A stretch of 54,500 nt of DNA, the filler included, from Sphacelaria rigidula (Eukaryota): the NCBI GenBank assembly GCA_964200075.2. It is 4 parts of 4 records of this genome, joined end to end, with 100 filler letters (N's around TTAATTAATTAA, not from the genome) between each part and the next. Parts side by side here need not be neighbours in the genome. Positions count along the whole stretch, not along the records: positions 40,953 to 54,500 come from CAXNAA020002811.1; 3 more parts are not named here. One strand, given 5' to 3'. The notes beneath the pieces were generated by a model, which was not told the origin of the DNA, did not search any database, and was given only the letters and a program-made list of their open reading frames with translations. The translations under genes were made by a program, and so were the position numbers. The stretch's first letter is position 1; each line of letters starts with the position of its first letter. Shown here piece by piece: positions 297 through 51,497 of this stretch.

Positions 297-3200
297 CTTC
301 CCTGGCTGTCAACCGCCTTCCTTCCCTCGCTTGTCTTCAACGCCGACAGCAGCAGCAATGTCAATTCCTCCGTACCGAACCCCGCCGCATACATCAGAGG
401 AGTCTGGCCTAAGAGATTTGGGAGACTGGGCGTCGCCTTCGCTGAAAGCAAGCGCTTTGCCGTACCCAAATGACCCTGTCGTGGTCATGGTGAACACGAA
501 ATACAAGATGAACACACACACACACACGCCACCGGAGTACTCATGATCATGCATGAGTACTCCGCCACCGGAGTAGACCGAACAGATGGAACATGGCGAC
601 ATGATCCTGACAAGCGGGTTGTGGTATACATCGCCGAAGACACGGGATGTCTTTAATACAAAAAAAAAAGAAGTTTACAGCTGTCAAAGGTTATTGCATT
701 CTACGACATCAACTTTGGTTTTGCGTTGTGTGCGTTGCACATGTCATGCATCCGTCGCGAATTTGACTTGCAAGGAATATGTGTTGCATGGATGGTTGTT
801 ATAACCGCTCTGTTTTACCTACCTCTCTCTGCACGTGTGTTGCTCTACCGTAACACCCAACCATTCTCAAGACGCATGCAACGTGAACGGGAATCGTCGA
901 CTACCTGAGAGCAGGCAGCGATAAGAGGGGTATATCGTTCGTGATGCCAGCCTCGTGCGGTGCGTAGGCGATGGCGGCTGTCGACGCTGACCCCTTGCCT
1001 CAAAAGCCCGTCTATCGCCGGGCCGTCGTCGTTCGCCGCTGCCGAACAAATGGACAATCGTTCAGGATCATACCTAATGTACCGCACAATGGATCATCAC
1101 GGCGTCAACAGCAGCGCAATGGGGCGGTAATTTTATGTACAGATAATTTTCGACACATATTCCTGTTCTAACCGCCATCAACATGCGTCGTACGTTGGAC
1201 TATGACCAACGGCGCACTCTGGTAGTGGTAAGGACAAAGAAACCGATTATGGCTGAGGGGTCATGAACGTTTCAACCACGGGTGTTCCCTGGAAGATGCC
1301 AAAAGCTACGGGTGACTGTTCAGACGAGTGGCACACGAAAAGTTCAAATACAAGGGTGATCGAAGCGACAGTCTTCACACGACACTTTTCCAGCGAGTTG
1401 TTCTCAGAAATTTCTCACCGAAGGAAACTAGCCGACCATTGTACCCCGTTTCGGCCCGAAACGTTCATGTAGTGTACCGTGCCGCACTGCATCCGGTTAA
1501 GCAACGCTTCAGCCGCATCGGGAACGCATCTGAAAGAAAACTCTGTCCACGTTTCGCGTGTGTTACGAAAGAGATAAATAGAAGGGTGCGCCACGTTGAA
1601 CCGGGCCTGGCCATTCGTGACATGAAGGCGTGTAATTTTTTTCCAAAACTGTGACCGTGCTAGATTGATTTTCGCACATTAACTCATCGCACGTTAACCG
1701 ATCCGGCACGTGTACGGTCGTGGTCGCAAGACGGATGTTCTCAAGGTGGGAAGTAGAAGCACTCGCGAAAGGGAACTCGAAAAACCGGAAACAATCAACC
1801 AAGATCGAGAGAATAAAAAGAGAGAACTGCGAACGAAAGAAAAAAAAGAGTAGCGTTGTTGACAGATGATCATGGTTGGGTGGGTACCTCTGCTGGAAAA
1901 GATGAGACGTTGTTGTGTCAACGCTGCAGCTCCATGTACAATAACCTCGTGTTGTCATTGTGACTAAACACCACGCTAACACTGTGCCTGAAGGACCCTT
2001 GAGGGATTCCGGGTGCTGTACCTCTCCTTTGCTTCCGAAGACAACTACATGCAGTAACCCAGTTTCGATACTTTTGGGTTACCAGAAAAACTAAAATATG
2101 CAAGTAACACAATAATGTGTCCCTCAGTTCGAGACACGAAATGACTAAATAACGCTCTAGCAACGAAAATATGGTAGACTGCGTGCTGTTCCCACATATC
2201 CGCGTTTCTCCTGAGCTGACACGAGCGGTGAGATGTCGAACGTTTTGTCCCTCGAAGTACTCTGCGACATGAGCATAAAACCAGACACCACTCCACCATG
2301 AGCCACCGATGACGAACATAACGCTGCAAGTGCGCGAGATCGGGTGATCTTCCCAGGAGAAATTTCAGTGGATATATCAGATCCACATAACTCATATCGT
2401 CAAACGAGATATAGACAATTTGCGGGAAAAGTCAGTATCTTGGCTGTTGACACCGCACACAGGGCACCGTTCATCGTAGCTCTGCCATCTGACGTGGGCC
2501 CTCTACTCTTGGTGAGTCCTTGTACAATTCTGCCTTGCACCACTCCATCGTCGTTCAACGTATGGCGACCGCTCGGCTTAATCGCAAGCGGCTACAAGCT
2601 GCATGGCACCGAAATTGTGCCAATAATCACAACTGCTTCCACTACAGGGTGTACCGTAGACTAGACTGGTGGTATTTTCAGTAGCTGCTCACTTGAGAAC
2701 GTTGACCACGGTCATATGACCACGCACAGCCGCGATCTCCAGGGCGGTTTCCCCCTGTCCCAACATCGGAAGCAGCAACAGCAACAACAGAGCCATCGGA
2801 CTTACAGCAGCACAAGATTGTGAGATGAGGATGGTGCGATTGGGCACGACGACATATCTCCATTCCTAGTCTCCACCCATGGTTCTATTCTTACTTTTAC
2901 ACGTGGACCTTATGCGTTTCGCTGGATTAAAAAACCTTAAACTGATCCTTGTTCTGAAACATATGTGCGACTACTCTACTTGTCAAGATACAAAAAACGA
3001 CGATGGTGTCGGGTGCGAAAACATAAGAGCTGCACGCTTGACGGTTGGGAAATATAGGTACACATGAAAATACCCAACTCCCATGATATCTTCAACATAA
3101 CGCTGGCTTGAAAAGCCCCTCCCCACCTTGTCGTTGCAACGGTAACGATCGGCCCTCAGGCGCAAGAGAAGCACGGCCATCCTTTCGTGCCCCGCCTGTG

Positions 3201-6200
3201 CGGCGTACATAAGGGGAGTCATGCCGTGTCGTCCTGGGCGGTTGACGTCTGTCTTGTGGTGCGACAGGAGCGCCGACGCCATGTCTTCATCCTTTTGTTC
3301 GTGGAAAAGCGGGAAGGTCCAAGGGGATGCAAGTGAAGTAGTTGATCCACAGACGGCATGGTTGGAACTACCTGCACTTCAACGGATGAACACTGCTACG
3401 ATCTGTGAGATTTAGGAGAGCAATGACAGGCGGGCTCGAGCATGGTATAACCCATATGCCTGAGAAGGATGGGGTGCTTTCAGCAGAGTCCCAAAATTGT
3501 CTAACGAGTATGTAGGTATCACCAGAACAGTCTGAAACATGACTGCGGCGAGCAGCTCACTACTTGCGACGTGACGTTGCATGTCGCTGTCAACACTCAA
3601 CGGAGCAGAATGCGTACCGCGGTCGAGAAACTCCGTGATATGGGTGGGGGCAAGAGAGAGGAGGTGCACGGGGTTCGCACGTACCTTATTGAAAACAGCG
3701 GCGATGAGAGGAGTATAGTCGCGTTCTGGGCACTTGGTGTTGGGATCTACACCTTGCTCCATCAGAGCCATCGCGCCGCGTACGTCCCGCTCTTTAGCGA
3801 TCAGGAAAACCTTCACCTGAAGTACTCGCAACACGCAAGACACAGGTAGGGATGCGTTCATCCAAAGAACGGCATATGTTTGTGTAGACGAGACGGGACG
3901 CTTGCCACATTCAGAATCATTGGAGGTGTAGAGACTACGAAGACCGGGAAAACACTTGAAGGCAGACCGCACGACCGAAAACAAAACGGCCACCAACAGG
4001 TGAGCAGCGACGAAAGACTACCCGAGAACAACGAACCACAACACGTCGGGACCATTGAAGGAACATCTGATGGGTGCTCCATTTTCCACGACGCAAACGC
4101 AAAAGTAAGGAAGCACGCGTGATTCTTCAACGCGCCAGGACGCCCATGGAAAGGATAGCTCATACGAACTTTATTATTTTATTATTTTATATATTCGATG
4201 TACTTTGAACCCCCCCCCTCCTTGGGACGAGTTCGTGGTCTCAAGGGATCAACCCATCTCTCCCCGGTACACGCCTTGCATTTTGGTCTCGCGGATTGGG
4301 TCATGACTATCACCACTCCCGCACCGCGTCAACTCTCGAACAAACTCAGTCGACTTCCTTGTTTACTCACGTTCTCACGCTTTCCACGGTGGAAACCAGA
4401 TACGACGAAGAAAAAACACGACACATCGGGAATCGAACCCTCGTTGTCGCCACCCTAACGGCGACAGTCGGACCGCTACACCACCGGGGCGCAGCGGCAC
4501 ATATAATAGCTCATACGAAACGAAAAAAACTAAATTACCTTGTTCGGATCGTACAGTAGCACATCTAGAAGTCGTGTGCTGCCAAATCGCCGCGCCCACT
4601 CCATTGCGTTTCTCCCCTCATTATCTCGGAGGTGTCGGTCCGCGCCCTTGGCCAAGAGGTGCACGGCAGCTGCCACCTGACAAAATAGAAACAATGAGTG
4701 CCAGGTAAGATCTACCTGTAATCGAAGAGGAATGCAGCTCGACACGTGACAAACGGCGCACGGAACGAGATCAGCGCAACGACAGCAAGCCGCGATGGTT
4801 CCACTGTAGTGCGGCTAAGGGAGGCTAATCTCCACCATGTTTTACCGCTGCGGTTGCCGATCAAACCTCCACCAGTGCAGTCGCGTGGGATTAGTTCTAT
4901 ACCTGGCTCTCCGTTGTAGCGTACCCCTCCCGCTGTGAGCAGTACATCAGCGGCGTTTCTCCTCGGACATTCGAACGGTCCGGGTCGGTCAACGGACACG
5001 CGAGCAATGCGTCCAGCACCTGGATAAATGAAGACATGCGCGTATCCTCGTGATACTGATGCGACCATCATGCTGACAGTGGTCACGCATTGTGATCTTC
5101 TCACGCGAAATGCCATGCCGTTTCAACTTCAGCGGTTTCCTGAGCTATCAAGTAGCGCCTAAAAACTTGCGTCAGTAGTGTACCTCCCGGATTACTAGAC
5201 GCCCTGTACTAGTGATGTTACGGCGGCCCGGAGAAAGTACAATATTAAACGACTTTGCGACAAGCAACCCGGATGGCGCAGGTTTTATACAGTGCGCAAT
5301 ACCTCGATATGCGCGAGAAATGCAGCGGCGATGAGCGGTGTGTACTGGCCAGTCGAGTCCGTCAAGTTCGGGTCTTGCCCCTGCAGCAACAATGCCTTCA
5401 CATAAGCCAGATTTCCGGCCTTCGCCGCCTGCGCGACATACGAGATATAAAACAAGCCGCTCAGGAACAAGATTCAGAGTATGACACGCGTGATGCGTCA
5501 GGGTTCGAGCGTACAGGCCGGGATGTTCTGAGCACACGCAACAACACAGGCACAGCGGAAAGTAAAATATCAGGGACGCACAGAAGAGCAAACTGCCGTG
5601 AGACGGCAATGCGTCCTCGACAGACACTTGATGGAGGTATCCCCGCTACAAATGGTAGTCTCCACATCACCTTCCCTTTGATGAGTCTCTTCGAGGGATT
5701 TCGTGACGAGAAGCTTGTAGAGGTAACCGTTTTTTTCACCAACAAGCGTCCAGGATATTTTCGATTTTTTTTTTTCATGTTTTCTTCATTTTTTGTTGTT
5801 GTTGTTGTTGGGTGCCCGTGCCTATAGACTCCAGGGAAGGTATATTCGTGAGTTTGCGACCCCTCTCCACTGGTCGCCTGCCATTTTTTGCCCCTACGCT
5901 TCCTGCCCAACTTTGATGATCGGACCAGGATCGAATCCGGGACCCTCTGGCCATGATACAAACAGAATGACCTCTTGTCGCCAATGTGAAGACATAATGG
6001 GTCCTCGACAGACATTGTGGTAGTGTATTACGTCTATCGGGTAGTCTTCACACAGATGTATGTTTCGCCTACGAAAAATGGGTATTTCTACGGCGGCATT
6101 AGCATGGTCGCCGAGACATCATGTACGACTGTGGGGTAGTCACACCTGGCATAGCGTCGCCTTCGCAGGGTCCGCCAGCAAAACTGAAGCGACCTCCATG

Positions 6201-11500: not shown

Positions 11501-12807
11501 ACGCAGGGAATGCTGCTAAAACACTACCCCGTGCACCTTCTCGCTAGAGACGCCTCCACGCTGAGGGCCACGAGCCTCACACAAGCTCGCACGCAATCGA
11601 GCATGTCGAGAGGACACCGGTACTCGACCAAGCGACACAGCTCCCCCTGAGCCAGCTCCCATTCTCGGCCGTACGATGCTGGCAAAGTGTCAAGTGTTGC
11701 GGAGAGGAAGTGTACGCGCGCGGTGAAAACGTTTTCGCCATCCGCCGCTGAACTGTAGATCAGCGTCAGAGGGGAAGTCCTATACGCGCGTGGGCCGTAG
11801 TTTATCCACCAACGAATGATGAAGCGCGAAATAGAAAAGTGAGCGCTCTCTCAAAGCCAACCACACCGCTGCATAACCGCGCAAGCAATAATCAGGGAAT
11901 GCCAACGGTCAAACGCAGTAGTACATAGGGCAACCCCCTTCCTGCCATTGCTTCCCAGAAGCGTACGGAGCAATATTTAGGAAATTGCCCCAGATAAGAC
12001 GAGGACATGAACAGGAATGGATATAAACGAATTTGGAATACTTGAAATAATTTACGGTTAGGACGAATCATCACGGGTTCGAATCACCAAATGCACGATT
12101 TCTTCGGCCTGATTGCCCAAACGGGAGAAAAAAGTTGACCGCTGGTCCAAAGGGGTCCACGCAACTTTTGCGCCATTCAACGTGTCTGGGCTGCGTGTAC
12201 CTGGGTTAGAACGCTGAAAACAAAGCCTAGGGATTGATTCGTACGATTCGAGTCAATTACAGTAAAACCAAGTAAAAACAAAAAGCCTAGGGATTGATTC
12301 GTACGATTCGAGTCAATTACAGTAAAACCAAGTAACTTCCAGACGAATCATTGATTTGTCCGATCCTTGAAATAATCAAACCACTGAAGAACCAGCTGGA
12401 CTCACCGGTGTCCTTAAGCGAGTCGACACACCAGTGACGTGGAAGCAGGAACCTCAAGGAGGCCAGTTTTAAGGTGAGCTCTTCGTCACCAAGCCCGTAC
12501 TCCGGCGCAGACGTGAGACACCGGTCGAACACCTGCACAGACAAAATCCGGCACAGACGTAACATTGGAGGTGAGACTACATCGAAAAATGGTATGCACA
12601 GAAGCAAAATGAATCAGACAAAGCAAAACCAAGGGAGGTAGCAGAAAGCACAGCCTGGGGAACAAATTAGAAGCCTTCGAATGCGTTGGCGCCGTGTTTG
12701 AATGTATCGAAGAATGACGCACACTCTCACACCGAAGTACCTCAACAGCTTCCCTGATTCATGATGGCGCAGGAAAAGATTCAACGTTTTCATAGCTTGG
12801 GTGGGTA
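297..12807 (-). CDS. VPS9-domain + ankyrin-repeat protein (Rab5-family GEF, VARP/ANKRD27-like architecture); multi-exon, truncated at both ends by the contig limits
   Basis: Manually assembled GT-AG exons in consistent phase: 12731-12807 (tentative), 12406-12532, 11537-11678, 10828-10987, 9597-9773, 8534-8592, 8118-8232, 7457-7530, 6697-6833, 6146-6204, 5303-5428, 4903-5019, 4539-4676, 3685-3816, 3127-3291, 2693-2754, 905-1073, 297-475. The joined translation has no stops. VPS9 motifs: DEELTLKLASLRFLLPRHW, WELAQGELCRLVEYRCPLDMLDC, GADDLL, ANPPRLAS, GEGAYCLT. Ankyrin motifs: GADPN, TPLIAA, GxTPLMYAA, GETALEIAAVRGH. Confidence 0.92.
4169..4505 (-). mobile_element. Full-length tRNA-derived SINE (family A), intronic
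   Basis: Minus-strand head has an A box (tggtgtagcgg) and B box (ggttcgattcc). The tail is (AAT)-rich. Perfect 14-bp TSD atagctcatacgaa at 4155-4168 and 4506-4519. Confidence 0.85.
5627..6000 (-). mobile_element. Probable tRNA-derived SINE (family C) with (CAA)n/A tail, intronic
   Basis: B-box-like ggattcgatcc on the minus strand at about 5928-5940 and a (CAA)n plus poly-A tract at about 5765-5810. A 14-bp direct repeat gtcctcgacagaca lies at 5613-5626 and 6001-6014, but the tail is not adjacent to it. Confidence 0.5.
7176..7390 (+). repeat. Dispersed repeat; copies at 12061-12365 (+), about 40610-40790 (-) and 53170-53430 (-)
   Basis: Shared core caacttttgcgccattccacgtg.ctgggctgcgcg.acctgg..tg.aacgctgaaaacaaagcct. 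The 12061 copy has a 60-bp internal tandem duplication. Confidence 0.85.
9338..9580 (+). mobile_element. tRNA-derived SINE (family B), intronic
   Basis: Homologous to 30837-31108 (reverse). A-rich tail. Imperfect 14-bp TSD aagatcacaacctc (9324-9337) / aagctcacaccctc (9581-9594). Confidence 0.75.
9597..12532 (-). CDS. VPS9 domain exons of the contig-1 gene
   Basis: Four exons encode VFDRC..DEELTLKLASLRFLLPRHW / YGREWELAQGELCRLVEYRCPLDMLDCVRACVRLV / KIAFGADDLLAALTWVVVQ / ANPPRLASRLWFTSYYMREGVEGLGEGAYCLTQLSSALEF, the canonical VPS9 motif order. Confidence 0.88.
10055..10625 (+). repeat. Abundant dispersed repeat; copies at about 13070-13552 and 21530-21685, and end-motif copies at about 21215-21255 (-), 23410-23455 and 38030-38075 (-)
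   Basis: Shared blocks ggtcaaacgactaaggcaagcaacaaatgagtac, ggggttggcgtcggttgg..cactgcgtaagctaggcaaccag and gcctggtccggcgaaaa.ccggcgtgctccgt. Confidence 0.85.
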
Positions 12808-13552: not shown

Positions 13553-13652
13553 NNNNNNNNNNNNNNNNNNNNNNNNNNNNNNNNNNNNNNNNNNNNTTAA
13601 TTAATTAANNNNNNNNNNNNNNNNNNNNNNNNNNNNNNNNNNNNNNNNNNNN
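13553..13652. other. Artificial contig spacer
   Basis: 100-nt N-run with central TTAATTAATTAA (stops in all six frames). Confidence 0.98.
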
Positions 13653-25339: not shown

Positions 25340-27061
25340 CAAGGGCAGGTCAAGTAGAGAATGTACTTTTGAGTACTCGAGTAAAATACCCGAGTATTTA
25401 CTGTACTCAAATGTTGAGGAGGTCGAGTTTGGCCTCGAATTCTTTACTCCAATTTTGGGTAGATCGAGTACGACCTCCACTACTCCAATCAAATTTTGAG
25501 TAGGTCGAATACGGCTTCGAATACTCTACTCCAATTTTGTGTAGATTGAGTACGACCGTAACTACTCTACTCAAAATTTGAGTAGATCGATTTCGACCTC
25601 CAATACTCTACTCAAATATTGGGTAAGCACTCTCAGTATTACTTGAGTACAGAGCACCAATTGGGTATGATGAGTGACCGTGACCGTCGGCAACAAGTTG
25701 ACGTCACATCACAGACTACGTTAATACATGGGCGAACGATGGCCATCGATAAAAAAAGTGGTGTCACGTCACAGGCTACAATGAGTATGAGCGAATGATG
25801 GCCATAAAAAAACGAAAAAATCGTGCAGATGAGTGAACCTATTATACCTGCCCCAGCCCACCTGCCCCCACCCATGGCCGTACATACTTGATACCTAGGA
25901 AGTGGAACGGTGGTGGCACGACATAAGGGTGAAGATCGAGACACCAGCCGAGCTGTGTAGAGATGCGATCCAATCTCGTGGAACGTTTTTTGTGAAGAAA
26001 ATGCGTGTCTTGTTCAGCGTCTTGGTCAAATCAGGAGTATAGTTGCACTTGTACCGGTCATTTGGATTTTGTCCTTTTTTGTTTGTGCTCGACAGATTGT
26101 GAATTATGAATTACGTTCTGTGGCGCTGTCATCATGTGCTTCATGATCCTTTCATTATCGGCTGTTTCCCCTTTTCCCCACTTGCAGCCAGGTGAAACGC
26201 GTCACACACCCAGTGACATGTCCGGATGCCCGGGTATGGACTATACACAAGACTTCGACTACCAATACTTCGATACGATTTTACGCTTTCCAGTACCCCC
26301 GCCAGTCTACACGGTACAATCCGAACGCCCTTCGACAATACCCCAATATTCATTCTACCCTAGTTTTGTACCATTTGGTTTTTTATCCAAATGCTCTCTC
26401 GAGTATACTGTGTACGAATGTTTGCTGAAGTTTGATCGGGAAGCAGCACTAATCATGGGTAGGCAACTCTGGGAATACGTCGGTATCTACTTCACCTGAG
26501 TTTGAGCATCTTGCGTATGCACTTAAATACTCGAGTTAAAATGATACCCAAGGTTTTTGGTACACCGGGTCCGACCTCAGATACTCTACCCAACTTTCGA
26601 GTAGATTGGGTATGATCTCACATATTATACGCAAAATTTTAATAGGTTGAGTATGATCTCAAATACTCTACTCAAAGTTTGAGTAGACCGATTACGGCCT
26701 CAAATCATTTCCTCAATTTTTTGGGTAGATTGAGTATGACCTCAAATATTCTCGTCAATTTTTGAGTATATCGAGTACGACCTCCAATACTCTACTCAAA
26801 TTTTGAGTAGATCGAGTATGATCTCCAATACTCAAATTGTGAGTAAGCACTCTCAGTAATACTTGAGTAAAGAGTATCACTTGTGTATGACTTCAATACT
26901 CCACTCATTTTTTGGGTAGATTGAGTATGGTCTCAAGTACTCTCCTCAAATTAGGGGTAGATTGAGTACGGCCTCAAATACTCTCCTCAAAATTTGAGTA
27001 CTGAAATTATGACTCTTCAAAAATATTCAGTATTGAGTACACTCCACTCAACCTACCCTTG
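25340..27061. mobile_element. Non-autonomous DNA transposon (CAAGGG TIR, 8-bp TSD) with arrays of a ~41-bp palindromic unit
   Basis: TIR caagggcaggtcaagtagag versus reverse complement caagggtaggttgagtggag. TSD gaatcttg (25332-25339) / gaaccttg (27062-27069). Unit tactctactcaaattttgagtagatcgagtacgacctccaa. Confidence 0.8.
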
Positions 27062-27203: not shown

Positions 27204-27303
27204 NNNNNNNNNNNNNNNNNNNNNNNNNNNNNNNNNNNNNNNNNNNNTTAATTAATTAANNNNNNNNNNNNNNNNNNNNNNNNNNNNNNNNNNNNNNNNN
27301 NNN
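27204..27303. other. Artificial contig spacer
   Basis: 100-nt N-run with central TTAATTAATTAA. Confidence 0.98.
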
Positions 27304-40852: not shown

Positions 40853-40952
40853 NNNNNNNNNNNNNNNNNNNNNNNNNNNNNNNNNNNNNNNNNNNNTTAA
40901 TTAATTAANNNNNNNNNNNNNNNNNNNNNNNNNNNNNNNNNNNNNNNNNNNN
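40853..40952. other. Artificial contig spacer
   Basis: 100-nt N-run with central TTAATTAATTAA. Confidence 0.98.
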
Positions 40953-44255: not shown

Positions 44256-45085
44256 GAGCCCTCCGTAACAAAGGGGATTATCCCCTTTTTTACAATCCCT
44301 TTTTGACAGGGGATTGGCCCCATAACGACCGGTCCCGAGTCCTATCGACAAGCAGTTTTGTACAGATTGGACCCAGATCTGCACGCAGGCTGAGAAATGC
44401 GGCGGGTCTGGAAGTGGTCATTGGTCCAAGCAGGCCAAAGGTCTGTGTAATGAATGCTGCAGACAAGACACGAGACAGCACAGCATCTACACACCCAGCC
44501 CCGAAAAAATACGCATAGACGCCCACCACTCACGCGCATCAGTTTCACTGCCAGCAGTTGCTGATCTACACACGGCAGGCCTGGTTTGACAGAAATCTGT
44601 TCTGTATTGGACGAATGGCGGCCGCATGCGTGTCAAAAACAACCGAAAACGTGTCTTTGCCGACCGTTCCGTGAGCGTGTGCTGCACGCGTCTCACACAA
44701 ATCATCATTTCTCAACGAATTCCGAACATATTTGAGCAAGGCCACGCACGATATGCACAGCTGATGAGCAGCTACGGCTCGAGCTGTGTGTTTTTGGTTT
44801 GCGGGGTCACCAAGTTCCTCAGATTCAGTCCTGTTTGTGTTAGGCCATGTGGTAAGCCTCTGCATGTGCCCCTGTCCATCGGACACGTATGTTCGCCTTC
44901 GAGGTGTCCGGAAATCCCCTCTTGAAAAACAATATTTTTGCACTTCCTGAAATCCCCTCTTCAGAGGGGGTTTCTGTACACGTTGAGGGTACTGTTTTTT
45001 GGTTTTTTGGGGGGGGTGATATCGCAGCGACCAATCACCGGTTGTTGTCCGAAAAGGGGATTATCCCCTTCGTTAAGAAGAGCCC
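44256..45085. mobile_element. PIF/Harbinger-type non-autonomous element inserted into a telomere-motif repeat
   Basis: 30-bp imperfect TIRs gagccctccgtaacaaaggggattatcccc / ggggattatccccttcgttaagaagagccc. TTA TSD at 44253-44255 and 45086-45088. Confidence 0.82.
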
Positions 45086-45424
45086 TTAGAATGAGGGTTA
45101 GCGTTAGGGTTGGCGGCATCTGCATACTACCAACATTCGCTTACGTACATGTCCTCAGGTCCCCTCCCTTTTCAGCGTACTTCACCGACTCTGTAGGCTT
45201 ACAGCGCTGACCGGAACCGCCTTTTCTCCTGATATCACCCCCCATTAACGATCAGGGGAACTGACGGTTTAGGTCAGCCCTGTGTACTCACAGACTCGGT
45301 AAAATGCGATGAAAAAAGTATCTACGCGGTAGAGGGGGCATTAGGCCAACAAAAAAATCATTAGCCATCGCTGAAAGTATGGGGAAAACACTTTTACGGG
45401 CTTGAACCTCATTTCATCGTACAA

Positions 45425-45520
45425 CCTACCAGGGAGAGATGAGTCCACCCCTCGAGACCATGGACTCGTTCCAAGGAAGGGGAGGGGTTCAAAGTGCGAC
45501 AGAGACAAGGATAAAAAAAG
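45425..45520 (+). mobile_element. 5'-truncated copy of the SINE family A 3' end
   Basis: taccagggagagatgagt..gagaccatggactcgttccaaggaaggggaggggttcaaagt matches the reverse complement of about 4200-4270. Confidence 0.7.
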
Positions 45521-45764
45521 TACTGAGAGTAAATAGAATGGCCTCATTTAAAGGGATTGTCTGTTCAAGGATGCGTGCGTGGTCACTCGGTATCCTCGTC
45601 TCCCCCACCCGTCATCCAACAGAGCAGCACCACAGGGACCGGACGAACCGAAAAGTTCATGTATCGTAGTCGTATAAATCCGCACTGACACGACGAAGTG
45701 TCGCGCAACAGCACCGAGCCGACGTCAGCTGGCAAAACGCGCGTGCACAGATGAACTCGTCAAG

Positions 45765-48272
45765 CTACTTATTTTGCCCGCTGGATACCACCACGGATGC
45801 GAGACCAGAAGGCGCAGACACCCCAAACTCTAACTTTACGTTGTCGCCCTCCTTCACAGACATCACATCAGCCGCAGATGGCGCACCAAATGCCATTTCC
45901 GCCGGCGCTACTCCACGTAGCCGCTTGGCGCTTCTCCTTTCACTGGAGAAACTGCTACCGCAGCTCGCGTCTTTGATGCTAGAATTACCGTTGGCCACGT
46001 TACCATGCAGGATGGATCGTGCAGCAGCCAGTTCGTTGCTTGTCATCCCTTCACAAACACGCGCGGAGAGGAGAGTCATCTCCATCTTCACTTCCATGCA
46101 CCTCGCTGCCCTATCCGGCGAAGCCCCATCTGCTGCCGCAGCGCCCGCGAGCTGTCCCGAGGTGGCCGGCGGCGAGATCGTGGAGTCTATACCGCTTCGC
46201 CTGGCATGACTGGCGCAAGAACTGCGACGGATCTCAACGCTGTGACAAACGTCACTCGCGTTCCGGCCGGCACCGGACGGATGGCTGGGCTTTTTACTAT
46301 CCTTTTTGCCGTGGGTGGTTCTTACTACACAGACCATGCCAGCCAAAGCGTGCGTGGCGCAGAACGCCGCCTTCTCGCTACCCGCTACACCGAATGACGG
46401 CACCGTGGAGCAGCCATCCTCGGCGCACCTCTTGTTTTTCACGTAGACCATGCCAGCCCGAGCGTGTGCGGCGCAGAACTCCACCTTCTTGATACCCGGC
46501 ACCCCAAACGACGGCCTTTTGGAGCAGCCATCCTTGCCGCACCTCCTGTTTTTCACACGGACCATGCCAGCCCGCACGTGTGTGGCGCAGAGCTCCGCGT
46601 TCCCGCCACCCGCTACACCGAATGACGGCACCGTGGAGCAGCCATCCTCGCCGCACCTCCTGGTTTTCACATCGACCATGCCAGCCCGAGCGTTTGCGGT
46701 GCAGAGCTCCGCCTTTTTGCTATCCACTATGCCGAATGACGGCCTAATAGAGCAACAATCCTCAGCGCACCCCTTGTTTTTGACATCGATCATACCAGCC
46801 CGAGCGTGCGTGGCGCAGACCTCCGCCTTTTTGCTACCCGACACACCAAACGACGGCCATTTGGAGCAACCATCCTCGCCGCACCTCTTGTTCTTCACAC
46901 TGAGCATGCCAGCCCGTGCGTGTGTGGCGCAGAGCTTTGCCTTTTTGCTACCCGCTACGCCAAATGATGGCGATGTGAAGCAGCCATCCTCGCCGCACCT
47001 CTTCTTTCTCACATTGACCATGCCAGCCCGCGCGTGTTTCGCGCAGAACGCCGCCTTCCCGCTACCCGCTATGCCGAATGACGGCATCGTGGAGCAGCCA
47101 TCCTCGTCGCACCTCCTGCTTTGCACATCGACCATGCCAGCCCGAGAGTGTGTGGCGCAGAACTCCGCCTTTTTGCTACCCGCTACACCGAAAGACGGCA
47201 CCGTGGAGCAGCCATTCTCGCCGCACCTCCTGCTTTTGATATCGACCATACCAGCCAGAGCGTGTGCTGCGCAGACCACCGCCTCCCCACTACCCGCTAT
47301 GCCGAATGACGGCAATTTAGAGCAGCCATCCTTGGCGCACCTCTTGTTTCTCACACGGACCATGCCAGCCCGCGCGTGTGTGGCGCAGAGCTCCGCTTTT
47401 TTGCTACCCGCTACACCGAAAGACGGCACCGTGGAGCAGCCATCCTCGTCGCATCTTCTGCTTTTCACATCGACCATGCCAGCCCGAGCGTGTGTGGCGC
47501 AGAGCTCCGCCTTTTTGCTACCCGCTACACCGAATGACGGTACCGTGGAGCAGCCATCCTCGCCGCACCTCTTGTTTTTCACATTGACCATGCCAGCCCG
47601 CGCGTGTTTGACGCAGAACTCCGCCTTTTTGCCACTCGCACCGAATGACGGCATCGTGAAGCAGCCCTCCTCGTCGCACCTCCTGGTTTTCACATCGACC
47701 ATGCCAGCCCGAGCGTGCGCAGTGCAGACTTCCGCCTTTTTGCTACCCGCTATGCCGAATAACGGCCTAATAGAGCAACCACCCTCAGCGCACCTCTTGT
47801 TTTTCACATTGACCATGCCAGCCCGAGCGTGCGTGGCGCAGACCTCCGCCTTCTTGCTACCCGGCACACCGAATGACGGCACCGTGGAGCAGCCATCCTC
47901 GTCGCACTCCTTCTTCTTCACAGCAACCATGCCAGCCCGAGCGTGCGTGGCGCAGAGCTCCGCCTTCTCGCTACCCGGCACACCAAACGACGGCCATTTG
48001 GAGCAGCCATCCTCGCCGCACCTCTTGTTCTTCACATTGACCATGCCAGCCCGAGCGTGCGTGGCGCAGAGCTCCGCCTTCTTGCCACCCGGCACACCAA
48101 ATGACGGCAATTTAGAGCAACCATCCTCAGCGCACCTCTTGTTTTTCACATTGACCGTGCCAGCCCGAGCGTGTGTGGCGCAGACCTCCGCCTTCTTGCT
48201 ACCCGGCACACCGAATGACGGCCATGTGGAGCAGCCATCCTCGCCGCATCTCTTGTTCTTCACATTGACCAT
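45765..48272 (-). CDS. EsV-1-7 cysteine-rich repeat protein (17 tandem 38-aa C-x4-C-x16-C-x2-H zinc-finger-like units), 835 aa from the first in-frame ATG
   Basis: Uninterrupted ORF (the track calls it from a GTG at 48320). Consensus unit KNKRCGEDGCSTVPSFGVAGSKKAELCATHARAGMVNV matches the EsV-1-7 motif known from Ectocarpus virus EsV-1 and from brown algal genes such as IMM. The array is followed by a low-complexity C-terminal tail of about 190 aa. Confidence 0.9.
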   Translation of the reverse strand: MVNVKNKRCGEDGCSTWPSFGVPGSKKAEVCATHARAGTVNVKNKRCAEDGCSKLPSFGVPGGKKAELCATHARAGMVNVKNKRCGEDGCSKWPSFGVPGSEKAELCATHARAGMVAVKKKECDEDGCSTVPSFGVPGSKKAEVCATHARAGMVNVKNKRCAEGGCSIRPLFGIAGSKKAEVCTAHARAGMVDVKTRRCDEEGCFTMPSFGASGKKAEFCVKHARAGMVNVKNKRCGEDGCSTVPSFGVAGSKKAELCATHARAGMVDVKSRRCDEDGCSTVPSFGVAGSKKAELCATHARAGMVRVRNKRCAKDGCSKLPSFGIAGSGEAVVCAAHALAGMVDIKSRRCGENGCSTVPSFGVAGSKKAEFCATHSRAGMVDVQSRRCDEDGCSTMPSFGIAGSGKAAFCAKHARAGMVNVRKKRCGEDGCFTSPSFGVAGSKKAKLCATHARAGMLSVKNKRCGEDGCSKWPSFGVSGSKKAEVCATHARAGMIDVKNKGCAEDCCSIRPSFGIVDSKKAELCTANARAGMVDVKTRRCGEDGCSTVPSFGVAGGGNAELCATHVRAGMVRVKNRRCGKDGCSKRPSFGVPGIKKVEFCAAHARAGMVYVKNKRCAEDGCSTVPSFGVAGSEKAAFCATHALAGMVCVVRTTHGKKDSKKPSHPSGAGRNASDVCHSVEIRRSSCASHARRSGIDSTISPPATSGQLAGAAAADGASPDRAARCMEVKMEMTLLSARVCEGMTSNELAAARSILHGNVANGNSSIKDASCGSSFSSERRSAKRLRGVAPAEMAFGAPSAADVMSVKEGDNVKLEFGVSAPSGLASVVVSSGQNK
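46326..48260 (-). repeat. Coding tandem array: 16 x 114 bp + 1 x 111 bp
   Basis: Recurring plus-strand 'gaccatgccagcccgagcgtg..gcgcaga' about every 114 nt. Unit 6 lacks one codon. Unit 14 has His->Asn. Confidence 0.95.
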
Positions 48273-48449
48273 GCCACCGCGAGTGTGTGTGGCGCAGAGC
48301 CCCGCCTCCTTGCTACCCACTACGCCAAACGATAAGCGATGTGAAGCAGCTCTCCTTGCCTGTCACATTGACCATGCCAGCCCACTCCTGTGTGGCCCAG
48401 AACTCCACCTTCTAGCTACCCGCTACGCTGTGCCCTCGTCGGGAACTCC
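48273..48449 (-). pseudogene. Eroded EsV-1-7 repeat units upstream of the ORF (probable 5' UTR or decayed N-terminus)
   Basis: Translates as SVAGS*KVEFWATQEWAGMVNVTGKESCFTS-(frameshift)-SFGVVGSKEAGLCATH: in-frame TAG, Cys->Trp, His->Gln, a deletion and a frameshift. A possible splice acceptor (cccgcag) lies at 48450-48456. Confidence 0.7.
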
Positions 48450-49651
48450 CTGCGGGCACATAGATTGACGATTCCCTTTGCGGCTGTACTGAGAGTACAA
48501 CACAGGGCGTGGGAGCCCCACTGTTGCTACAATCCACACCGCCACACACCTGAGCGCATGTATCAGCTGACCAATACAGCAAAGGCCTGGAAGAATTGAT
48601 CAGCAAGTTCAACGGAAAGTAGTGTCACAAAAAGTGAATCGACCATGTCAGTTTTTTTTTGTCACAAAGACATTCGTGAGCAGTGGTGTTCTCACCACGA
48701 AATTCCAGTCCAACAGGCAAAGAGGACCGGCGTCATTTTTGTGAAAAGCCGAGAGCTGCTTCCGTTACTGCACAACGACGGGGTGAGTGTACAATGGGAG
48801 CAGAGCTTGACAATGAAGGTCTTCACAACTGTCGTACTCAGGTCGCACGTATGGTGTCTGTGCTCACACGGAAAGCTCAACAGATGCCAAAGGAGAGGTT
48901 CGAAAAACGTTTTTCTGCCTCTTCGAGTCAGACTGGGAGAAGAAATAGCCAGTAACGGTGCACGTTTCACTACAAAAAAGTGTTCAGGGCGAATTTGTCA
49001 TAGTGAGAGTATCGTTTGGACCTCTCCACTATCAAAAACGATGTGCCCCTTCAAACTTCATAGCGCAACAAGAGGGAATCGCCCCCAACTTCACCACCAC
49101 GGCCACAGCCAGTCCACGATCGAATAACTCCAACAAGCAAAATGGATCACCCATCAGAACTGTTATGCGTATCACAACGGACCATCCACGAAGTAGTAGC
49201 GCTTGGAATCGCAAGAATCTCTCCGACGCTGCACAAGCAGTACGACACCTGGCTGTATTGTCATTCTCTTACAGGCAACGCCTTGCATCACCGTTGTGAG
49301 TAGCATGTTGCAAAGCCATTACAATGGGGTACTTTACTGTACTACTGTACAACTGACTGTACGGTATCGCTGTACTTCACCGTACCGCAATATACTGTTG
49401 TAGGGCTCTGCAGTGCGCTCTCTGTACTCTACACTGCATATCACTACAGCACCGCAGTGCCCCGTAGTACACCGTAGTGCAGCGAAGCAGCGCAAGCGCA
49501 GTGAAGCGCAACGCACGGCACGGCGGGGCGCCGCAGGGTACAAAACAACAGAGCATTGCCGCTTTCGTTGTACAGTATTTTCGAACTGGACGCTGGTCAG
49601 TCACACATTCGGCGGGGCAACCTGCCACAAATTACTGCGACAAGGAAAAAC

Positions 49652-51497
49652 GGCCAATGGCCCAGAAAAAGTATACCTTCTCGTTTTCTGACCAACGAAG
49701 GTACGAAAAATGGCCAAAAACGCCAAAACAGCACAGCACGCCATCTAGACCGTCGTCGCTCCGCATTTTTCACGTCCATCACCCGGGGGGGGCCTTGGCA
49801 CCCGGGCCCCGAAACAATGACGGATATATATATATATATATATCACTTGCGACATATTGCCAAAACGAAAACGCACATCTCGCCCTCAGAAACCGCTTCT
49901 CCTTTCTAGGTGAGAAATTCACCAGCTACACCTGATTCAGGGATCCTTCTTCAACCGTACCTTATCTGGGCCCTCAATGAGCCAAGAATAACCCCTGTGC
50001 TATGCCATCGCCTTCTACACTGTACCTGATGCGGCACATTCCGCTCATTTGGTATTTACGGACGCCAAAAGGATCACGCCCCTTTCTCCCCGGACATGGT
50101 TGCCGAGTCTCCTGCGTCGGTCTTTTGTGATGCGGGAGGTTGTGGAACAGCGTACTGTTGCGATCTCGGGGCTGGTGTCAGGGGCAAGCGAGGCTCTTGC
50201 GTCACCAACGGACGGTTGTCGCATCAAGGGGATCTGAAGGAAATTTAGTAAAAAACGGTTGGTACTATGGAGATGCCGCCAACCCCAACGCTAACCCTAA
50301 CCCCGACCAAAGCATATCGAGAATCCTTGGGCAAGGGGGATGCAAAATGTTTCTCTAGCAAAGTGTGCGTTACCAGAGCTCAAATCGACGCATTTGAGCA
50401 GAGTTGGGGCCAAGACACGTTCTGGGAGAGCTGGGTCTACTGCTCACCACTGCTCACCTGCCTCGTATCATAGATTTTTTTCAGAACTTTCTTCAGTTTG
50501 AAATCAAGGAATATCGAGTACCAACCATTGTTCACTTACATTTCTTCAGGTCTAGTGGTCGAATCATACATCGATAGTTGGTCCGAGCAACGGATACAGT
50601 TTTGGCCGTCACGCGTACAGAAGCAGGGACAGAACAGTAATAGCATTCAGCATTACAGTACCTCTCGCTGGCCGTTGGTGATTGCTGTGCACGGCGCCGA
50701 CAGAGGTGATAAGTGTACTTCGCGAGTGTTCGTTGGGCGCGCGTAACTCCGTACTGTGCTGCTGAACGCTATTACTGTTGTGTCCCTATTTCTATATGCG
50801 TGACGGCCAGTGCTGCATCCATTGCTTAGACCAACTATCGATGATGCGACAATCGCCCGCTGTTGACGGAAGATCTTAGCTTCACCCCGACACCGGCTTC
50901 GAGATTGCAACGGTACGATGTTTCACAACCCCCCGCATCACACCGCGTTGTGAGTTGTGAGTCCAGTAATAGTGCCGATGCGGAGAGGCTCGGCTACCAA
51001 TATCGGGGAGAGAGGCGTGGTAGTTGTGGTGTGCGTGAACGGCAAATAAGCGGGAAAAGAGCCGAATGTGTGGACGCCATGGTTTGTCTCGGCGCGTAGA
51101 TCCCGCTGCGCGCGATGTGCCGCATCAGGTACAGTGTAGGAAGCGATGGCCTAGCACAGGTACGTTCTCGGCCGATCGGTGGCCCAGATAAGGTTCGATT
51201 GAAGAAGGATTCTTCAATCAGGTATAGTCGGTGAGTGTTTAGCCTAGAAAGGGCAAGCAGTTTCTGGAGGCGAGACATCCGTTTTCGCGTGGCCATATAT
51301 CGCAGGTAACTTGTTTTCTTTCTCGCTTATTTTTCCGAAGTCCGGGTGCAAAGGCCCCCTCCTAGTGACGTGCGTGAAAAATTCGGAGCGAAAACAGTGT
51401 AAATGGCATGTTTTTTGTTGTTTTCACGTTTCTGGTTATTTTCCGTCCCTTTGTTGGGCAAAACACGAGAAGGTATACATTTTCTAGGCCATTGCCC
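49652..51497. mobile_element. Foldback/Mutator-like non-autonomous element with TIRs of about 570-650 bp
   Basis: 49652-~50225 is a diverged inverted copy of ~50840-51497 (for example tacactgtacctgatgcggcacat / atgtgccgcatcaggtacagtgta). No TSD found. Confidence 0.75.
50272..50520 (+). repeat. Dispersed repeat beginning with degenerate (CCCTAA)n; copies at about 44040-44255+45086-45120 (reverse), and more diverged at about 17250-17405 and 15730-15835 (reverse)
   Basis: gatgccgccaaccccaacgctaaccctaaccccgacc..ctgggtctactgctcaccactgctcacctgcc aligns with the interrupted copy in reverse. Confidence 0.75.

Follow-up and report, generated by a model that had tools for sequence, protein, structure and literature searches.

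Can a long array of zinc-finger-like units read nucleic acid through two residues that change from unit to unit? The question is raised by a gene for 17 tandem EsV-1-7 units in Sphacelaria rigidula, which lies in a 54,500-nucleotide stretch of DNA from assembly GCA_964200075.2 (here called the window; the gene is in the part taken from record CAXNAA020002811.1). A preliminary description of the window had proposed that residues 12 and 13 of each unit form a hypervariable pair that reads one or a few bases, after the fashion of TALE, PPR and PUF proteins. Here we report that the gene is an intact representative of the EsV-1-7 family (PF19114), that a TALE-like two-residue code is unsupported, and that the protein can be read, as we are on balance inclined to do, as a plausible nuclear DNA-binding string of zinc modules in which positions 13, 2 and 15 form a unit-specific patch. 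According to the literature, EsV-1-7 proteins make up the largest orthogroup across brown-algal genomes, their biochemical function is unknown, and IMM is a member that acts as a developmental regulator.

The locus encodes an intact array of 17 EsV-1-7 units

The array is encoded on the minus strand (no strand had been given for it before), within an open reading frame (ORF) that spans 45765–48320. The first in-frame ATG is at 48272, and an in-frame TGA at 48363–48365 closes the frame upstream. Translation from this ATG would begin at the Met of an AGM motif, as it likewise does in the models of four Sphacelaria rigidula paralogues (P0122, P0123, P0008 and P0144), and yields an 835-residue product with an isoelectric point (pI) of 9.37 that consists of exactly 17 units and a 186-residue tail.

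Tandem Repeats Finder reports one array at 46332–48323, with a period of 114, 17.5 copies, 81% matches and a score of 2381. The Pfam model PF19114 (EsV_1_7_cys) matches the protein in 17 stretches (E = 4.1e-241; 778.9 bits against a gathering score of 25), and 17 units are also obtained when the protein is cut at a GC(S/F)xxP anchor, so that the number of tandem units given in the preliminary description is confirmed in both ways. The scaffold it described as near-invariant is equally well borne out: C5, C10, P14, F16, G17, C27, A33 and G34 are the same in all 17 units, H30 is present in 16 of them, and the zinc-ligand pattern C5-x4-C10-x16-C27-x2-H30 is intact at 67 of its 68 ligand positions, with x15 in place of x16 between the second and third Cys of unit 6. 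The units are also Lys/Arg-rich, as had been stated (107 Lys and Arg against 58 Asp and Glu; pI 9.3 for the array), and form modules of about 33 folded residues that are joined by short basic linkers of the form (N/D)-V-K-x-K/R-x.

Comparison of the units with one another (136 pairs, Nei-Gojobori counting) gave a proportion of nonsynonymous differences (pN) of 0.146 against a proportion of synonymous differences (pS) of 0.283. At single codons pN reaches 0.53 (codon 13) and 0.47 (codon 37), and synonymous variation is present at invariant F16, G17 and S15. The units arose through duplication inside the array and are under protein-level constraint.

With 6481 cluster representatives related to it at E ≤ 0.001, the locus is a new member of an already known family. 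Its closest named relatives are other Sphacelaria rigidula proteins; named relatives come from Sphacelaria, Ectocarpus, Pylaiella and Ascophyllum, and there are viral (Nucleocytoviricota) matches as well.

As a separate observation on the array, contigs of runs X1 and X3 join position 46547 to position 47581, a step of 1033 bases or about nine units, with one extra letter. The short side of this joint is only 30 letters long; it may reflect a copy that has fewer units, or else a path that runs through repeated words.

Position 13, and not position 12, is hypervariable within the array

The preliminary description had listed the residue pairs at positions 12 and 13 exactly: units 1–17 read TW, KL, KW, TV, IR, TM, TV, TV, KL, TV, TM, TS, KW, IR, TV, KR and TV. 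The hypervariability that it ascribed to the pair belongs to position 13, which ranks first of the 38 columns (2.38 bits), but not to position 12, which ranks seventh (1.33 bits) and takes three states, T, K and I. Position 37, of which that description made no mention, is as variable as position 13 (2.37 bits, 7 states).

Neither of two further claims about the pairs withstood analysis. They had been said to differ by multi-base codon changes, whereas the codons found at position 13 (GTG, GTA, ATG, TTG, TGG, AGG and TCG) are all connected through single-base steps and only ATT, at position 12, is two steps away from the other observed codons. They had also been said to be reused like an alphabet, whereas reuse follows the tree of the units: on a FastTree tree built without codons 12 and 13 the pairs need 8 changes, with 7 as the minimum, while 2000 label shuffles needed 10.6 on average and 8 or fewer in just 0.3% of cases. 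Units with the same pair are closer to one another over the other 36 codons (0.125 versus 0.170; permutation p = 0.0014), and IR/IR, TM/TM and KW/KW units are sisters on the tree. The 8 pairs recur because duplicated units inherited them.

Positions 12 and 13 part ways across the family and its viral relatives

We collected family units from 240 proteins with a hidden Markov model built on this array's own units, a source of bias in the set. The 1651 aligned rows were reduced to 1092 with a gap-free core, 1076 of which came from other proteins and 1073 of which, from 239 proteins, were unique. When these 1073 units are pooled, 15 columns exceed 3 bits of entropy; column 13 ranks fourth (3.50 bits) and column 12 ranks 20th of 38 (2.32 bits; K in 529 units and T in 264), with K, T or I at position 12 in 861 of the units. 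At position 13 R and Q lead, and R, Q, H and K are all common. Mismatch between units of the same array was then scored in 144 other arrays of at least 5 units each. Column 13 has the highest mean (0.83) and is among the top three columns in 55 of the arrays, followed by column 11 with 24; column 12 (0.51) is 19th of 38 and reaches the top three in a single array. Since both the pooled and the within-array ranks set column 13 apart from column 12, the excess variability that had been expected of both positions across the family is found at position 13, and at position 12 variability is no higher than elsewhere in the unit.

A second set of units, from viruses, was retrieved with a DNA pattern for columns 26–38 and thus independently of similarity to this protein. 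It holds 409 rows, 314 of them with a gap-free core, and 46 arrays of at least 4 units. Here within-array mismatch is led by columns 15 (0.84), 13 (0.78) and 2 (0.76), with column 12 at 0.50.

Co-variation between columns, scored in both sets as corrected mutual information (a score that relatedness among units inflates), places the pair 2–13 11th of 703 in the family set and 9th in the viral set, the pair 12–29 6th and 5th, and the pair 12–13 itself 49th and 53rd. These ranks suggest that the di-residue splits, position 12 acting as a packing residue with position 29, and position 13 as a surface residue with position 2 and probably position 15.

We also asked how far the residues are kept at corresponding units of homologues, using 17 non-overlapping protein pairs of 60–80% identity (of 34 candidates), 13 of which gave 50 aligned unit pairs. 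Mismatch in aligned versus non-aligned unit pairs was 0.48 versus 0.89 at column 13, 0.30 versus 0.63 at column 12, and 0.297 versus 0.474 over all columns. Retention of the di-residues is mixed, from 6 of 6 units (P0034/P0171) and 5 of 7 (P0012/P0018) to 0 of 6 (P0023/P0154), which is compatible with unit-specific function and also with weak constraint.

The predicted fold is a string of small zinc modules

AlphaFold2 modelled units 5–8 from a 121-row alignment with a predicted local distance difference test score (pLDDT) of 92 and a predicted template modelling score (pTM) of 0.54; a single unit was modelled with a pLDDT of 86. By DSSP, each modelled unit has a strand at residues 16–18, a bridge at 26, a three-residue helix at 28–30 and a strand at 35–37, with residues 11–15 as coil straight after the C5...C10 knuckle. 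In the model, a module looks like a knuckle, a hairpin and a short helix on a linker of about 5 residues, and the modules like beads on a string. The superhelix of TALE, PPR or PUF type that had been envisaged for the array does not appear: the 4-unit model consists of small beta/zinc modules without a helical solenoid, and no arrangement of the units relative to one another is predicted with confidence (pTM 0.54). High pLDDT together with low pTM is in line with independent modules of the C2H2 type.

Searches with sequence against solved structures gave two chance matches (E > 0.3) for the 4-unit protein, none at E ≤ 10 for a 17-unit profile and none for the family profile. No solved structure resembles the modules by fold either: the single-unit model gave 5 matches, none with E of 7 or less, and LIM, PHD and ArfGAP zinc modules are among the top Foldseek matches, not one of which is significant. 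A search of the ESM Atlas with a 4-unit piece, PF19114 being left out, gave no usable match. Among the predicted viral structures of BFVD there are 29 fold matches at E ≤ 0.001, including EsV-1-7, EsV-1-115, four entries named 'Endonuclease' and one named 'DNA primase'.

Viral arrays are joined to a conserved, putatively nuclease-like domain

A degenerate DNA pattern retrieved 80 loci (L001–L080) from IMG/VR, with 84 ORFs that carry the motif. We aligned 78 of them, leaving out three of less than 80 residues and three duplicates, and PF19114 matches all 78. (A query of IMG/VR made with a protein alignment gave 30 pattern matches, none of which was confirmed.) In viral ORFs such as L001:2628-3200:+ and L070:1322-3592:-, between 1 and 14 EsV-1-7 units are followed by a C-terminal domain that is conserved and about 190 residues long.

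A motif of this domain, [ED]xD[ED]x[QH]H, is found in 61 of the 78 ORFs, always after the last unit, and 6 of the 17 ORFs that do not show it are cut by the end of their locus. Alignment of 54 of the 61 C-terminal regions (truncated and duplicate copies left out) gave about 190 positions, among which C4, C9, C22, C25, D75, E88, D90, E91, Q93 and H94 are invariant, as are R105, R122, N124, P125 and D126. The domain starts with an A20-like C-x4-C...C-x2-C arrangement, and its invariant residues further comprise a D, E-x-D-E-x-Q-H and R-x-N-P-D. Pfam lacks a model for it. It has 3705 relatives at E ≤ 0.001 among 4340 candidates, and 113 of the best 120 carry PF19114; one Atlas cluster that matches it is named 'Endonuclease (Fragment)', and its alignment with Hjc (1gef), at E = 1.6, runs across the catalytic D...E-x-K region.

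A second kind of fusion is on record in Ectocarpus, where an EsV-1-7 domain forms the N-terminus of the TcMar-2_Ec32 transposase (PMC12477816); the EsV-1-7 passage of that paper makes no mention of a nuclease. The viral fusion and the transposase fusion give indirect support to a nucleic-acid role of the units.

The tail is shared with paralogues and carries putative regulatory motifs

The tail aligns to four Sphacelaria rigidula paralogues, P0122 (65% identical when every matched stretch is counted), P0123, P0008 and P0144, the alignments covering query residues 622–848 for P0122 and 614–848 for P0123. This conservation indicates that the tail is genuine coding sequence; no Pfam family matches it at E ≤ 0.001. 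The pattern psi-K-x-E is the SUMO consensus, and a related pattern, [VIL]KxE[LFIV], occurs within the last 60 residues in 20 of 225 tails, whereas 200 shuffles gave 2.6 on average and 7 at most. Two psi-K-x-E sites (VKME and VKLE) and a basic KRLR motif are kept in the Sphacelaria rigidula paralogues, a hint that the protein is imported into the nucleus and regulated by SUMO-type modification.

A proposed DNA-binding string of zinc modules and its alternatives

What mechanism might join these observations? In the account towards which we lean, each module would bind one zinc ion, as the ligand pattern and the model suggest, the protein would enter the nucleus through its KRLR-type motif, and it may receive SUMO-type modification at its two psi-K-x-E sites. 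The array would bind DNA (RNA being less likely) as a flexible string of independent fingers, and would in this resemble C2H2 arrays more than TALE/PPR solenoids. A small contact patch would be offered by each module, with position 13 as its most unit-specific residue and, family-wide, positions 2 and 15 as further members; position 12 would serve for packing, together with position 29. By this account, the cellular family looks like a nuclease-less relative of the giant-virus proteins that combine an array with a nuclease-like part. The links to DNA, all of them indirect, are the viral C-terminal domain, the transposase fusion, a ligand spacing equal to that of SBP zinc finger 1, a weak match to the SBP profile and the basic character of the array.

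A number of observations weigh against DNA binding by such a patch. Position 13 is hydrophobic (V, W, L or M) in 13 of the 17 units, which suits protein contacts or base stacking better than reading through hydrogen bonds; weak constraint at this column is possible, because it changes often between aligned units of homologues; and that positions 2, 13 and 15 are exposed is something we infer. The match to the profile of the SBP domain (PF03110, of the plant SPL transcription factors), whose positions 1–37 align from C5 of unit 4, is weak (E = 0.06) and at 14.1 bits stays below the Pfam gathering score of 27; the Cys-rich repeats of the family also match other zinc families. That the viral C-terminal domain is nuclease-like is suggested by names given by others and by matches below threshold, namely REase_MTES_1575 in 3, Hjc in 2 and DUF559 in 1 of the 54 aligned regions; PHROGs matched none of the 54, NCBIfam gave nothing relevant, and no nuclease name occurs among the 120 listed relatives. 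Between that domain and the tail of the present protein hhalign finds no relationship (probability 0.04). Finally, the candidate leader of the gene has 4 upstream ATGs, which open ORFs of 1–20 codons.

The alternative that survives best, though we regard it as rather unlikely, is a protein–protein scaffold, in which LIM-like zinc modules recruit partners, position 13 tunes their choice and nucleic acid is not contacted. The hydrophobic character of position 13 in this array is what a scaffold would call for, whereas the R, Q, H and K common there across the family are not. LIM, PHD and ArfGAP modules are among the best fold matches, insignificant as all of these are; a passage of a 2026 preprint states that no Ectocarpus EsV-1-7 gene has another Pfam domain, and a passage of PMC7457493 describes the function of IMM as unknown. 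Against these stand the repeated fusion of EsV-1-7 units to DNA-acting parts, that is, to the viral nuclease-like domain and the transposase, and the basic nature of both array and linkers.

It is very unlikely that the gene is a decaying copy, a recently amplified repeat that is open only for want of a stop codon in its unit and is drifting to a pseudogene. Among the units pN/pS is about 0.46, nearly all ligand positions are kept, and the non-repeat tail and the short motifs are conserved with four paralogues. Decay would account for the decayed units and the stop just upstream, the upstream ATGs, the loss of the zinc-ligand His in unit 14, the loss of several Cys in paralogue P0122 and the absence of the exact protein from a collection of 15 billion proteins; the open frame alone proves little, because an antisense frame (Table 1) is open as well.

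Least probable of all is a programmable reader of the TALE/PPR type, in which the 12–13 pair sets the base or bases read by each unit and rearranged units re-target the protein: position 13 does come first (144 arrays) or second (46 viral arrays) among unit-variable sites, two homologue pairs (P0034/P0171 and P0012/P0018) keep most of their di-residues unit by unit while the scaffold diverges, and viral arrays adjoin nuclease-like domains, but position 12, which is semi-conserved, varies together with position 29, entropy is above 3 bits in 15 of the 38 columns across the family, pair reuse follows the unit tree, the model has no helical solenoid, and P0023/P0154 keep none of their pairs.

A wider claim would be that nature has in EsV-1-7 arrays one more class of modular DNA readers, in which each module reads a short DNA step via positions 2, 13 and 15, viruses aim a nuclease, and algae regulate transcription; we think it quite unlikely. 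If it were true, giant viruses would use the arrays to aim their C-terminal nuclease, the nuclease-less relatives in brown algae would regulate transcription as a family of very large size, the question of what the largest brown-algal orthogroup does would be answered, and array composition would predict target sites. The locus itself adds just one member to the EsV-1-7 family. It is the family-wide leads, a variable patch (13/15/2) distinct from a structural position 12, the viral nuclease-like architecture and the spacing of the SBP finger, that together sharpen 'may be a zinc finger' to a concrete and testable hypothesis.

The surroundings of the gene and other features of the window

The positions of the gene, its parts and other features are collected in Table 1. 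Remnants of units lie 5′ of the ATG; they have lost Cys/His residues, contain a stop and are in other frames, and one of them is a decayed partial unit at 48316–48411 (E = 0.0059). Farther upstream, the minus strand reads ttcttccag|G at a consensus 3′ splice site, and contigs of runs X2 and X6 depart from the window sequence at 48586; the departing letters occur nowhere else in the window. This would fit a leader spliced to a first exon outside the window, and is only a lead, because neither run is on record as RNA (their kind is unrecorded). Over 48732–50000 runs X2, X6 and X1 are nearly without cover and run X3 has a cover of about 60, which we did not count as evidence.

Table 1. Positions of the EsV-1-7 gene, its parts and neighbouring features, counted along the window
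Feature	Position	Strand	Remarks
Proposed coding sequence	45765..48272	-	835 aa + stop; first in-frame ATG, context GGCATGG
Array of 17 EsV-1-7 units	46326..48260	-	C-x4-C-x16-C-x2-H; 38 aa each, unit 6 37 aa
C-T-A-N of unit 14	46692..46703	-	zinc-ligand His replaced by Asn
Non-repeat tail, 186 aa	45768..46325	-	pI 9.46; common to Sphacelaria rigidula paralogues
VKME	46080..46091	-	psi-K-x-E pattern, SUMO-consensus-like; conserved in tail alignment
KRLR basic motif	45915..45926	-	putative; resembles a nuclear localisation signal; kept in the tails of paralogues
VKLE	45828..45839	-	in conserved C-terminal block (D/N)VKLE(L/F)GVS
Candidate 5′ leader, same exon	48273..48586	-	4 upstream ATGs; decayed unit remnants in other frames
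AG of consensus 3′ splice site	48587..48588	-	ttcttccag|G
Antisense open frame	46447-48468	+	673 aa; no family match of its own
ORF with ankyrin repeats	2986-3378	-	Pfam E 1.2e-08; only other ORF of at least 110 aa with a match

The window contains this gene and one decayed unit but no second EsV-1-7 gene, and a tandem gene cluster was rejected for that reason. A viral insert was likewise rejected: among 77 other ORFs of at least 110 residues, the one with ankyrin repeats is alone in having a Pfam match. The gene is therefore solitary here, and it does not lie within a recognisable viral insert. The ankyrin ORF is probably an exon of a neighbouring gene, and the antisense frame results from the lack of stop codons in the repeat unit.

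Just 3′ of the gene, at 44500–45600, the summed contig depth of run X3 is 6,500–85,000, against about 60–140 for single-copy sequence, and contigs join or end here in many places; the region probably holds a repeat of high copy number or a piece of a transposon. Elsewhere there are 41-base tandem repeats at 25399–25625 and 26573–26833, about 1 kb apart and with similar units (5.5 and 6.3 copies; 73–74% matches), and a 60-base unit at 12222–12335 in 1.9 copies of 100% identity. Paired runs of 44 Ns with 12 bases between them, at 13553–13652, 27204–27303 and 40853–40952, are spaced about 13650 bases apart and look like masking or scaffolding marks, not biology.

Comparison with known systems

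The protein shares with the EsV-1-7 family (Ectocarpus IMM; EsV-1 gene 7) a CCCH motif in tandem repeats, and the EsV-1-7 protein itself is matched among the BFVD predicted viral structures (E = 1.9e-17). It differs from the family at large in its subfamily-specific tail and in its length: its 17 units are the highest number among the 240 proteins first retrieved (of up to 1490 residues), the next having 11. The viral fusion proteins share the 38-residue period and the motif with the present protein, and columns 13, 15 and 2 are the ones that vary between their units. Their longest array, among the 78 ORFs, has 14 units, and they carry a putatively nuclease-like C-terminal domain where the present protein has a basic, low-complexity tail.

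In the spacing of its ligands the unit is identical to SBP zinc finger 1, which is given as CX4CX16CX2H in a passage of a preprint (10.1101/2021.08.22.457055). SBP matches were found in 9 of 83 relatives scanned at E ≤ 1 (best E = 0.0012). The SBP domain further has a second finger (CX2CX3HX11C) and an in-domain bipartite nuclear localisation signal, neither of which is present in the 38-residue unit with its four ligands, and it is a single domain, in contrast to the tandem array seen here; no SBP structure is among the fold matches. Zf_WRKY19 (PF24906, a 24-position model) is matched by 19 of the 83 family members (best E = 5.2e-13) but, at E ≤ 10, not by this protein. SBP, SQUAMOSA and WRKY go unmentioned in two EsV-1-7 preprints, and the term 'DNA-binding' is absent from the 2026 one.

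TALE, PPR and PUF proteins are like the present one in having tandem near-identical units with a preferred variable site. They differ in forming a helical solenoid, whereas here the units are non-helical and one hypervariable residue stands among many other variable columns. C2H2 arrays differ in their ligands, which are CCCH here, and in their beta-beta-alpha unit, the modelled EsV-1-7 unit having no helix of 4 or more residues by DSSP; the likeness to them would lie in the overall plan, that of independent small zinc modules joined by short conserved linkers and carrying a few surface positions that vary from unit to unit.

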